The notes under the pieces are model-generated. The model saw nothing but the letters and a program-made list of their open reading frames with translations, had not been told where the DNA came from and ran no database searches. 64,000 nucleotides of DNA from Octopus vulgaris (Eukaryota). The translations under genes were made by a program, and so were the position numbers. The stretch lies in assembly GCA_951406725.2 (NCBI GenBank), contig OX597830.1:73842001-73906000 (forward strand). Direction: 5' to 3'. Each line of letters starts with the position of its first letter. Within the stretch, counting starts at the first letter, position 1. This document shows positions 2,579-29,190 of this stretch, piece by piece.

Positions 2579-4894
2579 AGTAGATAGTTAATTTGGCTCA
2601 AAAGCAAATAGCAAGGCCATGTAGGGGGACATGGAGTTAAGTACAGGGTGGTGTTCATGTAAAGAGTTCAGGCCACTTGAGGTCAAGGGAGACTTTGAAC
2701 AAAGCGGTCGTCGGCATCTTTACCATCTCGTCTGGCAGCTTGTTCCACGGATCCGCAACCCGGACGGAGAAAGCTCCTCTCCTTCGATTGAGAGGAAATC
2801 GTCGCAGGTAGAGCTTTTCGGAATGACCCCGCAGCTGACGCTCTGGAGCAGGAGTGAAGAACAGCTCTTTCGAGAGGTTACACTTTCCGCTTATGATGTT
2901 GTGGGCGAGAATGAGATCACCACGGCGGCGGCGTTTTTCAAGAGAATAAAGGTCGAGCGTCCTCAGCCTTTCTTCGTAGGACAAATTTTTGAGACCATGA
3001 ACCATGCGGGTAGCCAGCTTCTGGACTCTTTCGAGATGCTGTATGTCTTTGAGGAGATAAGGAGAAGAGGCTTGAATCCCATACTCCAATATGGGTCTCA
3101 CCAGCGTGACATAGAGTGGTAGGAATATGGCTGCTGTGAGCATTCCGAATGACCGTCGAATCAAGAACAGAATTCCGCGTGCTTTGTTGGCAGCATGGAC
3201 GCACTGGGCCGAAGGCGAAAAGGAGGAATCCACCAAGATACCTAGGTCCTTTACCTGATCGGTCCTCTCCAGCAGCAGACGACCCGGCTCGAAATCAAGT
3301 TGAGTTGCAGGAGTAGAGCCGACAGGCAAATGACAGCACGTTGACACGTTCAGACACAGGTCCCAATCGTTAGACCACTTCCAAATTTGGTGGAGACATC
3401 GACGAAGATCCTCTAAATTACCGCGAGGAGCGACCAGTTTGATATCGTCGGCAAATAGAAGGGTATGTTGCGTGAGGTCGTCGGGCAAGTCATTTATGAA
3501 GACTAAGAACAACAAGGGCCCAAGCACTGAACCTTGAGGCACGCCACTGCTCGCACTGGAGACGTCGGACCGCGAACCATTAACTTGGACTTGGAAGGAG
3601 CGATCTGAGAGGAAGGCACCAACCCATCGTACAATATCCGGATGGAAACTATATGCCTGAAGCTTGACAAGTAATAGGCGGTGGTTTACCGAGTCAAAAG
3701 CTTTGGCAAAGTCCAGTAAAACAATGTCAACAGCATCACTATCATCGAGGATGCGCGTCACCAATTCTTCCATTACTAGTAAGTTGGTCAAGCATGATCT
3801 CTTCGGCACGAAGCCGTGTTGGGAATCAGAGATAGAGGCTGTGTTTAGGAGGTGGATAATCATACTTTTCTTAAGGATGGTTTCGAACATCTTGCTGATT
3901 ATTGATGTAAGGGAAACCGGTCGGTAGTTAAGCGGGTCTTCGCGGCTCCCTTTCTTGAAAATTGGGCAGATTATCGCTGTTCTCCAGTCTGCAGGTATAA
4001 CACCCGTCGCCAATGACATATTGAATAGTCGCGTTAAGGGCTCGCAGATGACCGGAGCCAACGCTTTGATAACCCGTGGGTGTATGCCGTCAGGGCCGTG
4101 ACCCTTGTTGACATCGAGGCCTTGAATAACACGTTTGACTTCGTCCCGCGTGATGACCAATCGAAGCATTGGAGGTACCGATCTATCAAATGGAGGGGGT
4201 TCACGACCATCATCTTGTTTGAAAATAGTTGAAAAAGCCTCGGCAAATAATTGACTCTGTTGATAAGGGTCCTCAATCAATACGCCTGTTGAGTCTACCA
4301 ACGTTGAAATCTGGTTGTTCAAGCGGGAATTCCGCTGGACATGGGCAAAGAAGGTTTTTGGATTGCTACTGGAATTTGCTGCGATTTTGTATTCATAACT
4401 GAAGCGTTCTTTCTTTTCGATTTTCACGGCTCGGTCTCGTTGTGTTTTGTACACCTCAAAAGCTGCAGTCGAATCCAGATTTTTGAATTCAGCCCAAGCA
4501 ATATCTCTGAGTCGACGTTCTCGTTTAACCCTCTTCGTCACCCAGGGCTTGTGTTTCTTCCTCTTGGGAAGCCCAACGGGAACTGCCTGGTCAGTCAGAC
4601 AGATTACATATGCTTTGAGGGATGACCATAGTTCGTCAACTGAGGACAACGTCATCAGGGATCGCCAGTCCAGAAGCGCGGAAGCCTCGGTTAGAATTTC
4701 AAGATTAATTGCAGAGAAGACTCTACGTGGCAGCGAAGTAGTCGTGGGCGCAGAAAAAGTTGTGTGCATGACGAACTTCAGGACCGCATGATCACTCTTG
4801 GCAAGAGGGGCGCACACAGATACGTCTGACACTGATCTTGGATAGCGGGAGAATACCAGATCTAGCATAGATGGCTGCTGCCCAGACCGATGCC
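2579..4894 (-). mobile_element. 5'-truncated CR1-clade non-LTR retrotransposon
   Basis: Uninterrupted ORF2 portion plus ~75-bp 3' UTR; sharp compositional boundaries against AT-rich flanks. Confidence 0.92.
2655..4868 (-). CDS. LINE ORF2, partial: C-terminal APE endonuclease plus reverse transcriptase
   Basis: 737 aa: LDLVF..SDH (APE end), GPDGI, NYRPVSLTS, QHGF, DFAKAFDSV, GVPQGSVLGPLLF, LFADD, KDLG; frame stays open upstream (HRSGQQPS) to the truncation point. Confidence 0.93.
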   Translation of the reverse strand: MLDLVFSRYPRSVSDVSVCAPLAKSDHAVLKFVMHTTFSAPTTTSLPRRVFSAINLEILTEASALLDWRSLMTLSSVDELWSSLKAYVICLTDQAVPVGLPKRKKHKPWVTKRVKRERRLRDIAWAEFKNLDSTAAFEVYKTQRDRAVKIEKKERFSYEYKIAANSSSNPKTFFAHVQRNSRLNNQISTLVDSTGVLIEDPYQQSQLFAEAFSTIFKQDDGREPPPFDRSVPPMLRLVITRDEVKRVIQGLDVNKGHGPDGIHPRVIKALAPVICEPLTRLFNMSLATGVIPADWRTAIICPIFKKGSREDPLNYRPVSLTSIISKMFETILKKSMIIHLLNTASISDSQHGFVPKRSCLTNLLVMEELVTRILDDSDAVDIVLLDFAKAFDSVNHRLLLVKLQAYSFHPDIVRWVGAFLSDRSFQVQVNGSRSDVSSASSGVPQGSVLGPLLFLVFINDLPDDLTQHTLLFADDIKLVAPRGNLEDLRRCLHQIWKWSNDWDLCLNVSTCCHLPVGSTPATQLDFEPGRLLLERTDQVKDLGILVDSSFSPSAQCVHAANKARGILFLIRRSFGMLTAAIFLPLYVTLVRPILEYGIQASSPYLLKDIQHLERVQKLATRMVHGLKNLSYEERLRTLDLYSLEKRRRRGDLILAHNIISGKCNLSKELFFTPAPERQLRGHSEKLYLRRFPLNRRRGAFSVRVADPWNKLPDEMVKMPTTALFKVSLDLKWPELFT

Positions 4895-4913
4895 TTCGTC
4901 TACTCCGCGTTAA

Positions 4914-4945
<32 letters not shown>

Positions 4946-11481: not shown

Positions 11482-12025
11482 CAGTCATCCCTCGTTTATC
11501 GCGGTAGATTGGTTCCGAGACCGGCCGCGATAAATGAATTTCCGCGAAGTAGGGACACCATATTTACAGTATTTATTTAACGTGTATTTGGACTTTTAAA
11601 ACCCTCCCTGTACTCTTAACAACCCACCCATTACAGTAGTCTATTAATAACAAAGACAACTGTTAAGCAATAACACTTTAGATTAAAAAAATATAAAGAT
11701 TGTTATTGTACTCAACACGAAGGAAGTTGAAGTAAAATTTGAATGATGATGGTGATGAATTTGCTGTGCAGTAGAAACGACGATGATGAAGCTGGCGTCG
11801 GTGCCCTTTCCTATGACACCTCTTCCACTTCTTCCGAAGGTGCAGTCGTATTAGTAGCAGCAGGAACCATATCGTCGTCCCATTCCTGTGACCCCTCTTT
11901 CAATTCTTTAGCCAGGTTGCAGAGCCTGGCCAGCCGTTCCAAAGTCAAGCCAGTTTGGTCGACAACTTCTTCTGTTTCTTGCTGCGTTTCTTCTTCTTCT
12001 TCTTCTTCTTTGGATTTGATAACGT
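11482..12025 (-). mobile_element. Tigger/pogo-like DNA transposon, one-ended fragment
   Basis: TA-CAGTCATCCCTCG..TATCGCGG..GATTGGTTCC terminus; minus-strand acidic peptide EEEEEE..GLTLERLARL..AKELKE..EWD resembling pogo transposase C-termini; second TIR not seen. Confidence 0.7.
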
Positions 12026-12181
12026 TGGTTTTTAGTGTGTACTGTAACTGCATGTCAGAGAATGCCTTGTATGATATGCCTTATTTTGTTGGATATATTT
12101 ATGACAGAGCTTATGTTGGGGACAGCAACGTTGCTTTACTTAGAGTGATGAGTTATGTGTGTGTGTGTGTATGTGTGTGTT

Positions 12182-14536: not shown

Positions 14537-14659
<123 letters not shown>

Positions 14660-14786
14660 CGAATATATAATGGTGACTAAATGTGACTAAGAGAGCCGAA
14701 GCACCTACATTGCTAGAAATAAGACTTAACTCTTAATGCTCTAAGAAGACAGTAGTATATATACAATGACAGGGAAGGTAACCGTC

Positions 14787-14873
14787 CCATGACCGTGTCT
14801 AGAATCACTAGACTAGAATAGTTTCGCCTATTTTGTAAGCATCATCAGTAGTGACTATTCAAACGGTCAATGG
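14787..14873 (-). ncRNA. Type I hammerhead ribozyme
   Basis: UCACUA-CUGAUGA-U-GCUUA(CAAAA)UAGGC-GAAA-CUA(UUC)UAG-UC/UAGUGA; stems I, II and III all pair and stem I extends through bulges. Confidence 0.85.
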
Positions 14874-15130
14874 TTTGGTTAGTTCATCTGCCAGTATATA
14901 TATTTTTATCATAAAAATTTATGGCTGATTTAGCGAAATGTTAATGCGTATGGTAAGAATTAATATAAAAGGCTAGGCGGCGCGATATAATACCTAAAGG
15001 GAAAATTTCATCGCCACTAAATTTGATGCAGAATCTCGAAACACTTACATAGCTAGAAATAAGATTTTAAAATTCTCAATACTGTAAGAAGTGCGCAATA
15101 TATATGTGTGAGTGTGGGCGTGTGTGTGTT

Positions 15131-15177
<47 letters not shown>

Positions 15178-15229
15178 GTGTATGTGTGTATATATATGTG
15201 TATATACATGTAAATATATATATATATAC

Positions 15230-15517: not shown

Positions 15518-15683
15518 TACGACAGGCTTCTTTCAGTTTCCGTCTACCAAATCCACTCACAAGGCATTGGTCGACCCGGGGCTATAGCAGAAGACAGTTG
15601 CCCAAGATGCCACGTAGTGGAACTGGACCCGGAACATGTGGTTGGTTAGCAAGCTACTTACCACACAGCCACTCCTGCGCCTA
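15230..15683 (-). mobile_element. Full-length SINE family C with internal (TA)/(TG) microsatellite
   Basis: Head AGGCGCAGGAGTGGCTGTGTGG, CORE-like CTTGGGCAA segment, (TAAAAGAG)n tail. Confidence 0.9.
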
Positions 15684-15736: not shown

Positions 15737-16128
15737 AGGCGCAGGTGTGACTGTGTGGTAAAAAGCTTACTTCCCAACCACATGGTTCCAGGCTCACTCC
15801 CACTGCGTGGAACTTTGGGCAAGTATCGTCTACTATAGCAACGGGCCGACCAAAGCCTTGTGAGTGTATCTGTTAGACAGAAACTGGAAGGACCCTTTGT
15901 TTGTTTGTTTGTTTGTTTGCGTGTGTGTGCGTGCGTTTTTGCTTTCCCTCTTCACCACTTGTGGAGAGGCGAGAGTGCATTTACCTCCCTGTGACTTAGC
16001 GGGGCAAAACTGATTCATAGAATAAATACCAGACTTTAAGAAATTAGTGGGGGTCGATTCGTGCGGCTCAAAAGGATTTAAGGCCGTGCCACCGCATAGC
16101 CGTCATTTAACACTGAGATAAGTCAAAA
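15737..16128 (+). mobile_element. Diverged SINE family C, head-to-head with the previous copy
   Basis: AGGCGCAGGTGTGACTGTGTGG head and degenerate tail. Confidence 0.8.
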
Positions 16129-20044: not shown

Positions 20045-21707
20045 AATCAAAATAGGCAACAAGAATATCCAGAGATAATGCAGTACGATTGTTTCATGCA
20101 ACTCCATTTAATTGAACAATGCAATCATTTCATCAATCTAAAATGCAGAGAAGTCTTCAGCTGCACAAAGACACAGACTTTAATCAAATTAGAACAGATG
20201 AACACATTCTTTGTCTATCTCCTTAAATTATTGGAGATTTTAGGTACGAGGGGCGTTCAATAAGTAATGCCCCTGACCCACTTCCCATAGCAGTAGAGCA
20301 ACGAAACTTGGCACAGTTATTAGTCTTTTTCTACATAGGAACCACCCAGAGTTACGCATTTCTCCCATTGTTTGATGCAGCTCTGGAGACCGTTTTTGTA
20401 GAAGACCCCAGCTTGGTCCTCCAACCACGACGTGACTTCAGAAATCAAGGCTGCATCATCTGGGAAACGCTTTCCTTTCAAAAACAACTTCATGACTGGG
20501 AAGAGGTGAAAATCAGAGGGTGCAAGGTCAGGAAAGTAGGGGGATGGGGAGGAGTTCATAGCCATACGCCTGTGCTTCTGATCTGGCGACAAGCGAGTTG
20601 TGGACCGGAGCGTTGTCCTGCAGGAGGAGGATGCCTTTGCTGATCATTGCCCCGCCTCTTGATTTTGATAACTTCTCTTAATTTCCTCAAAAGTGAAACA
20701 TGATAAGCTCCTGCAATTGTGGTACCCTTTGCCAGGAAATCTGTCATCCCTACTCCGTCCTGGTCCCAGAAGACTGTGAGCATGACCTTGCCAGCGGAGG
20801 GCTGCACCCTTGCCTTCTTTGGAGGGGTGAGTCACGGTGCTTCCACTGCATTGACTGGGCTTTGGTCTCTGGATCATCGTGATTGACCCAGGTTTCATCC
20901 TGTGTAATCAGTCTTTTGAAAAATTTTGACTCATCTTCTTGGCACATCTCCAAATTCACCCTCGAGCACTCGACGCGTTCTTGCTTCTGGAAAGGCGTGA
21001 GCAACCTGGGAATCCATCTGGCAGACACCTTTTGCATATGCAAATGGTCATGAATGATAGTTTCCACAGATCCGGTACTAATCTTGACCTCATGGGCTAT
21101 TTGGCGAATAATTATGCGTCGATCTTCCAAAATGGCAGCCTCAACTTGACGAACAGATGCCTCATCAATGGCAGAAGGGGCGACCAGATCTGGTAGCTGT
21201 TTCCACAGAGTTCCGACCATGTTTGAATTCACGATGCCAGCGTTTTACAAGGTCATATGATGGGGCATCATCACCATAAGTTACTTTCATTTCATCAAAA
21301 GTCTCCCGTGGTGTGCGTCCTTTCAAATACAAAAACCGGATCACTGCTCGACACTCAACAGGGTCCATTTCACACTTGACTCGGTTCAAACACCTGTAAA
21401 TCAGAAACCACAATTAGTTCAGAGCTGTAATTCGCCACTTAATCTATAGAGGTATAAATAATTGCACATACAAAATTTCTAGATCAAACAACTGCAAGTG
21501 GGTCAGAGGCATTACTTATTGAACGTCCCTCGTATAATTATACTAATGCGTCCATCTTTTCTAAGTTAATTAGATTCTATGTCTTTGTGCAGCTGAAGAT
21601 TGCTCTGCATTTTAAATTGATGTAATGATTCAATTGTTCAATTAAATGGAGTTGCACGAAACGATCGTACAGCAATACCTCTGGATATCCTTGTTGCTTA
21701 TTTTGAT

Positions 21708-28939: not shown

Positions 28940-29190
28940 GTCTCACGTTTGATCTTTGACTTCTGGCCGGAATCAGATCACCATGTTGATTCGGTAGCTT
29001 CTGCACACATTTTTATTTCTCTCCTTGTTTCTTTCCGTGTTTCTTTTCTGTGTATCTTTCTGTTGAAGAGCGTAGGCTCGAAACGTAAAAGACTTGTTTT
29101 ATTTATATTCCTGAGCGCCATACTAATACAATTGTTTGTTTGTACTCCACCTGCCTTCGTCTTTTGTTTATTTCCATAAAGCTTCCCGTT
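28940..29190 (+). mobile_element. Penelope pLTR-like element with minimal hammerhead variant (29055-29092)
   Basis: UCUUU-CUGUUGA-A-GAGC(GUAG)GCUC-GAAA-CG-UA-AAAGA; related copies at ~47057 (-), ~50600 (+) and ~50815 (-). Confidence 0.7.

Follow-up and report, generated by a model that had tools for sequence, protein, structure and literature searches.

An old, dispersed hammerhead repeat of Octopus vulgaris, probably an extinct family of animal non-LTR retrozymes

The window analysed here, a stretch of 64,000 nt from contig OX597830.1 of Octopus vulgaris, contains on the minus strand at 14873-14787 a motif in which all conserved positions of the hammerhead core can be read, and this raises the question whether a single ribozyme has been adopted by the host or a mobile element has left one of its copies. 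A first-pass annotation made from the letters of the window described the motif as solitary, intact and fully paired, with an extra base after A9 of a kind known from viroids, and proposed either an undescribed retrozyme/Penelope family or a domesticated intronic ribozyme; an Rfam search and a covariation analysis of further copies were suggested as checks.

A type I hammerhead is defined by the core CUGANGA, GAAA, an NUH triplet and three stems with stem I open, and each of these parts was found at the positions below.

14805..14854, minus strand: type I hammerhead with stems I-III and complete catalytic core (sequence; Rfam HH9 alignment of 22.6 bits, below gathering; column check)
14854-14849 (5' strand) with 14810-14805 (3' strand), minus strand: stem I, 6 bp (sequence)
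14848-14842, minus strand: core CUGAUGA (sequence)
14841, minus strand: extra U after A9 (sequence)
14840-14836 with 14830-14826, minus strand: stem II, 5 bp including one U-G pair, with a CAAAA loop (sequence)
14825-14822, minus strand: GAAA (sequence)
14813-14811, minus strand: GUC triplet, with the predicted cut at 14811/14810 (sequence)
14855..14860, minus strand: 3-nt UAG bulge and GAA strand beside stem I (aligned to the HH9 internal loop)
14757..14903, minus strand: long predicted hairpin of ~147 nt, formed by the extended stem I and capped by the hammerhead (z -5.79, 0 of 200 shuffles)

Stem III (CUA/UAG, 3 bp, with a UUC loop of 3 nt) is closed by A15.1-U16.1, and the GC content across the hammerhead is 0.39. 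The full core, the GUC triplet and the predicted cut of the first-pass annotation are borne out by the sequence and by the HH9 alignment, and the extended pairing of stem I runs farther than had been described, to the hairpin 14903-14757, whose arms start and finish in TATATA; the 87-mer taken alone folds with z -3.74. The best match in an Rfam search of 431 nt was Hammerhead_HH9 (22.6 bits, E 0.003), aligned in register across the core, the stems and loop II, so that CAAAA falls on loop II of HH9. The suggested Rfam check thus pointed to a specific model but at a score below the gathering value of 52, and at this value no match was obtained anywhere in the 64-kb window. The UAG bulge and the GAA strand probably make up the loop I side of a predicted tertiary contact with loop II. 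Full pairing holds on paper, but for the window copy the minimum-energy prediction is another structure, 3.3 kcal/mol below the hammerhead fold, and the probability of stem I in the predicted ensemble is 0.08, in energies that ignore tertiary contacts. A loose scan for CUGANGA...GAAA hit 16 places in the window, and the core-like motifs at 29060, 1199, 46681 and 63994 are unrelated to the repeat family described below.

The surroundings of the hammerhead give a clearer picture of what it belongs to. Two direct repeats of ~100 nt bracket the hairpin (14661-14762 and 15001-15105, 340-343 nt apart, 73-74% identical), and mapping to monomers from other loci resolves the whole into the following insertion.

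14661..15105, minus strand: whole insertion, ~1.3 head-to-tail units of a ~340-nt non-coding repeat (direct repeats; mapping to monomers from other loci)
14958..15105, minus strand: 5' partial unit, the last ~150 nt of the monomer, without ribozyme (77% match with the reference monomer over its 3' half, L001 u173-319)
14661..14957, minus strand: near-full unit with the ribozyme (78% to the reference monomer, L001 u2-277 of 320)
14539-14639 and 15136-15228: flanking microsatellites

The near-full unit stops short of the family's usual 3' end by ~25-45 nt. The sole open reading frame overlapping the element is of low complexity and lies at its 3' edge, and no ORF with reverse transcriptase and GIY-YIG domains is joined to the hammerhead unit, either at this locus or at the mapped loci. 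We also considered the flanking direct repeats as decayed minimal hammerheads of the opposite strand and rejected this, as other copies inspected by eye have no CUGANGA core and form only small hairpins.

The motif is not solitary either. In addition to the flanking direct repeat, a search of the 2.8-Gb genome (227 contigs) with a 131-nt query gave at least 41 matches on many contigs, with self excluded, at 76-88% identity (40 of 163 candidates scored). Four DNA searches and one pattern search together gave 93 non-redundant loci, i.e. 92 mapped loci and the reference, and 47 non-redundant loci were mapped with tandem and inverted anatomy; many additional loci keep just the 3' ~140 nt of the unit. 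An exact 19-mer occurs 37 times genome-wide, against 3 times for its reversed control, and is carried by 7/49 and 3/29 sampled copies, which suggests ~260-360 ribozyme-bearing copies in the genome; this is probably an underestimate because the samples consist of the best-scoring copies. Contigs from three DNA runs, one of which carries the label of another organism, also matched the element at ≥85%, with 419, 414 and 440 such contigs. Of 12 contigs from one presumed RNA run, none covered the ribozyme, which says nothing for or against its expression. No long arrays were seen among the mapped loci, the maximum being two ribozymes in the same orientation per locus (L025, L074), and viral contigs gave 0 matches to one exact pattern. 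When Rfam was run by E-value on 20 loci, microsatellite and miRNA matches dominated among the matches listed (150 of 349).

The copies share a unit of ~340 nt that is non-coding and closes on itself head to tail, and the way in which insertions begin and end is markedly polarised. Among 53 loci found with ribozyme-region queries (the duplicated pair L006 and L009, 98% identical, being counted twice), 20 cross the unit junction, and the insertions are 1.0 to ~1.7 units long. The 3' end is fixed in 24 of them, which stop within u332-344, some 190 nt 3' of the cleavage site; the remaining 29 stop elsewhere; 5' ends are scattered, with at most 10 in any 15-nt interval, five of those at the reference edge. 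In 12 loci the 5' side carries an inverted piece, and no locus has one on the 3' side. Microsatellites flank the 3' side in 33 and the 5' side in 15 of the 53, against a background of 15% at random positions. Read-on past the 3' end into the next unit was seen in 0 of 45 cases, a denominator that loose alignment inflates but that includes true ones, and just 2 of the 21 copies reaching into the previous unit pass the cleavage site of that unit. Judged from these sequence ends, the anatomy is a Penelope-like insertion pattern. Together with the dispersed tandem units it supports the retrozyme/Penelope option of the first-pass annotation. As a separate observation, about 10 of the 23 loci from a 3'-end query (L123-L151) start at the foot of the long hairpin (~u192-197), right after an internal TA run; such starts may come from stalling of reverse transcription at the hairpin, from 5' joining via TA microhomology, or from later growth of the microsatellite.

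To see how the ribozyme has fared in the family, we used an alignment of 49 of the 54 core-spanning hairpins, from which the five lowest-scoring were left out, so that conservation is somewhat flattered. The extra base after A9 is U in 43 of the 49 and absent in 5, and two subfamilies can be told apart: one with the extra U and a 5-nt loop II, and the other with no extra base and a 7-nt loop (5 copies). The base noted in the first-pass annotation is a trait of the family, and because PMC4209133 describes a base between positions 9 and 10.1 as conserved in Penelope hammerheads, it speaks for a relation to Penelope elements no less than to viroids. Stem III most often takes a near-palindromic form (13/49, with a predicted self-duplex of -10.9 kcal/mol) that would suit a double hammerhead, and a few copies have a 12-nt palindromic stem III; metazoan and PLE hammerheads with a short palindromic helix III are described as working as dimers (PMC4209133). 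In the window copy the palindrome has been lost, and the change responsible weakens the self-duplex to -2.8 and also weakens the hammerhead fold. Circular folds of five natural monomers, on the ribozyme strand, were mixed (z -6.6 to +0.8). Single hammerheads of coral and mussel retrozymes do cleave (PMC7229834), so that the window copy may still act as a monomer; in Xenopus retrozymes one of nine genomic dimers tested cleaved (10.64898/2026.07.22.740005).

The copies are old: they diverge from the column majority by a median of 13.8%, transitions at CpG are enriched (0.228 vs 0.104), and the best pair of independent loci is 91% identical. No young copies were seen, and the family is probably extinct. 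The whole core is retained in 19 of the 49 copies, where independent decay predicts 16.5, and the whole core plus all pairs of stems I-III in 5, including the window copy. Variation is lower in core columns than in the columns next to them (8.5% vs 13.8%, p 0.015, in the same 49 copies), possibly owing to bias of the searches or to constraint on the source elements. The divergence of the ribozyme relative to the rest of the unit depends on how segments were found: 0.142 vs 0.158 in ribozyme-seeded segments (p 0.053), 0.172 vs 0.140 in unit-seeded segments and 0.260 vs 0.194 in five 3'-seeded segments, and in the 3'-seeded sample 0 of 7 cores are intact. The ribozyme decays at the same pace as the remainder of the unit, that is, neutrally. 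Pairing across the 49 copies is high, in 84% of cells against 28-38% in slid controls, but the suggested test for covariation was unconvincing, since 22-33 of 500 shuffles scored as high on four of five measures and 236 of 500 on the fifth; RNAalifold recovered just 3 pairs, in stem II. Weak covariation is expected because the decay is star-like, from few sources, and pairing with marginal covariation fits a small number of structured sources whose descendants have decayed free of selection.

Comparison with known systems places the family near two kinds of element. Animal retrozymes are described as type I repeats of 150-450 bp, 350-390 bp in mussel, with circular RNA (PMC7229834), and the ~340-nt unit falls inside this range. 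Like the animal non-LTR retrozymes in PMC7229834 and 10.64898/2026.07.22.740005, the octopus family has one canonical type I hammerhead per unit, a GC content below 50%, head-to-tail order and PLEs in the same genome. It differs in showing only dispersed insertions of 1.0-1.7 units, with no long arrays and no young copies, and the window locus would fail the test for an active element, two consecutive complete hammerheads, given in 10.64898/2026.07.22.740005. As far as sequence can tell, then, the features by which an animal non-LTR retrozyme is recognised are present: a non-coding unit of 150-450 bp, one type I hammerhead, tandem multi-copy occurrence and co-occurring autonomous PLEs; cleavage and circular RNA are predictions. 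With PLEs and their pseudo-LTRs (pLTRs), as described in PMC4209133, PMC8557442 and PMC11167929, the family shares several traits. Truncation at the 5' end, units in partial tandem, an inverted copy on the 5' side and a preference for microsatellites are all present here and are described for PLE insertions in PMC8557442; a fixed internal 3' start, the extra base after A9 and the palindromic stem III are likewise shared. The family departs from PLEs in lacking an ORF, in showing no DNA similarity to those sampled from this genome, and in having a full-length ribozyme with extended stem I. It appears to be neither an autonomous PLE nor a domesticated ribozyme of the HH9 type, and we regard it as a new family of animal non-LTR retrozymes, probably extinct. 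We put a rough probability of 80% on the view that the window element belongs to a set of old and decaying copies, estimated at several hundred, of a ~340-nt non-coding repeat in which each unit carries a single type I hammerhead, and that this repeat is likely an animal non-LTR retrozyme formerly mobilised by Penelope-like enzymes.

The closure of the unit, its dispersal, the polarised ends and the neutral decay are direct observations, and the steps that could account for them are drawn from the retrozyme and Penelope literature. A tandem source would have been transcribed, its hammerheads would have cut the transcript to unit length, probably aided by pairing of two palindromic stems III, and the monomer would have been circularised. 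A Penelope protein with reverse transcriptase and GIY-YIG domains would have nicked AT-rich or microsatellite DNA, and reverse transcription would have begun at a fixed position inside the unit, passed the cleavage junction and continued around the unit, leaving insertions of 1.0-1.7 units. A model with a circular RNA template and a proposed PLE partner is found in PMC7229834, while the anole PLE is described as initiating reverse transcription internally and using unprocessed RNA (PMC11167929). For insertions that run from the fixed end back over both the cleavage site and the unit junction, a self-cleaved linear monomer is excluded as the template and a circle or an uncleaved multimer is needed; both are compatible with the insertion data. 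A bolder claim, to which we give somewhat under an even chance, is that the repeat represents the first retrozyme family of a cephalopod, and that its fossil insertions record the still hypothetical retrozyme life cycle, with Penelope reverse transcription starting at a fixed internal site of a ~340-nt circular RNA, passing the ligated junction and going round the circle.

The insertion anatomy is the same as that of PLEs, and one may ask whether the unit is instead a detached pLTR of an extinct autonomous Penelope element, its copies being 5'-truncated insertions. The extra base after A9 and the palindromic stem III are traits of PLE hammerheads, and Xenopus retrozymes are described as related to pLTRs (10.64898/2026.07.22.740005). 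What lies upstream of the unit start in 20 of the 53 loci, however, is the unit's own 3' end and not an ORF; tblastn with a PLE ORF against 124 repeat loci, some of which are the same place, matched just three places (L050, L150 and L014/L046), and the one inspected, L050, is a separate insertion on the opposite strand; and the ribozyme is of the full canonical form, unlike the minimal form typical of PLEs. We consider this origin unlikely. Less likely still is that copies arose from uncleaved linear multimers, or by DNA-level spread of a MITE- or Helitron-like kind via the hairpin arms, with the ribozyme uninvolved in insertion. The anole Penelope in vitro needs no hammerhead cleavage and uses unprocessed RNA (PMC11167929), the 2 of 21 copies passing the previous cleavage site also fit a linear template, and the arms do begin and end in TATATA. 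Against movement as DNA, the insertion ends fall elsewhere than the arms, and a MITE with the arms as terminal repeats was rejected on that ground; moreover, one constant end combined with 5' ends that scatter and are inverted in some loci agrees with reverse transcription and not with cut-and-paste. The uncleaved-multimer version is compatible with the retrozyme label.

The domesticated intronic ribozyme is the least probable of these readings, and in our view it is unsupported. It holds that the window copy has been kept by selection as a host cis-acting ribozyme, for example in an intron, like HH9 of amniotes, and domestication has been proposed for amniote intronic hammerheads (PMC6155905). 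The best Rfam match is HH9 (RF02275), with which the window copy shares the topology, a 6-bp stem I with bulge, a CAAAA-type loop II and GUC, and its core and stems are among the few entirely intact. It departs from HH9 in its score far below gathering, its 5-bp stem II and the extra U, and, while HH9 is single-copy and conserved, the family is multi-copy and decaying. Neither single-copy status nor purifying selection on the core, by which HH9 and HH10 are recognised, emerged from the genome searches and divergence counts; many decaying, dispersed copies were found, which the first-pass annotation had named as telling against domestication if they also lack syntenic conservation. Measured against the column majority, the window copy has changes at 4 of 50 positions within the ribozyme and at 31 of 248 outside it in the same unit (a rougher alignment reaching into unrelated flanks gave 3/50, Fisher p 0.17), intact cores occur near the chance rate, and the private changes of this copy are predicted to favour misfolding. 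No host exon was identified near it: the nearest candidate, 11814-12080 on the minus strand, is an unidentified repeat with 67 genome matches, and its acidic open stretch of 89 aa gave no significant Pfam family. We return to the retrozyme reading, under which the window copy is likely a dead insertion that owes its surviving core to chance. Having one hammerhead, it could not release a monomer, and it is most likely an inert relic.

The partner of the family can be assigned by kind only, presumably as Penelope-type. GIY-YIG matches in the genome number at least 148 (150 of 6136 candidates scored), many of them identical, and an intact ORF of 765 aa with RVT_1 and GIY-YIG is found at L115:993-3290 (G000:C16) with a TA run after it, its RVT_1 match of 28.9 bits being just below the cut-off of 29.6. 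This ORF has a CxxCxxC linker, which we take to be Neptune-like, and the many genome matches that have an equal score and a 781-codon open frame in common suggest that it belongs to a young family. DNA comparison of the unit with 27 GIY-YIG loci, a small sample skewed to young families, found no similarity except one unrelated neighbouring insertion, and the PLE beside L050 was rejected as the partner for the reason given above. Near the plus end of L106, on the minus strand, a type I hammerhead-like motif with stems drawn by eye lies beside a young Penelope-type ORF, in unrelated sequence.

In the literature searched, which covered few subscription papers and no repeat databases, no cephalopod or octopus family of hammerhead retrozymes was described, and the supplement of PMC7229834 may show further invertebrate retrozymes; hammerhead retrozymes would thus be extended to a lineage for which that search found no description. 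Mobilisation by Penelope enzymes is called a hypothesis in both retrozyme papers (PMC7229834; 10.64898/2026.07.22.740005), and the polarised insertion ends give it independent genomic support and name a start site for reverse transcription. If the start at a fixed site on a circle is true, the mapped 3' end can serve as a ready substrate and start site for a Penelope protein in vitro.

Other repeats were observed in the window. A fragment at 20750-21244 (minus) gave no Pfam match and presumably resembles a mariner transposase. At 2655-4940 (minus) there is an open frame of 761 codons with an RVT_1 match (E 1.4e-29), probably a LINE. Finally, 15524-15635 and 15785-15896 form an inverted repeat of 112 nt, 79% complementary and 149 nt apart, which is probably two opposed copies of a common repeat.
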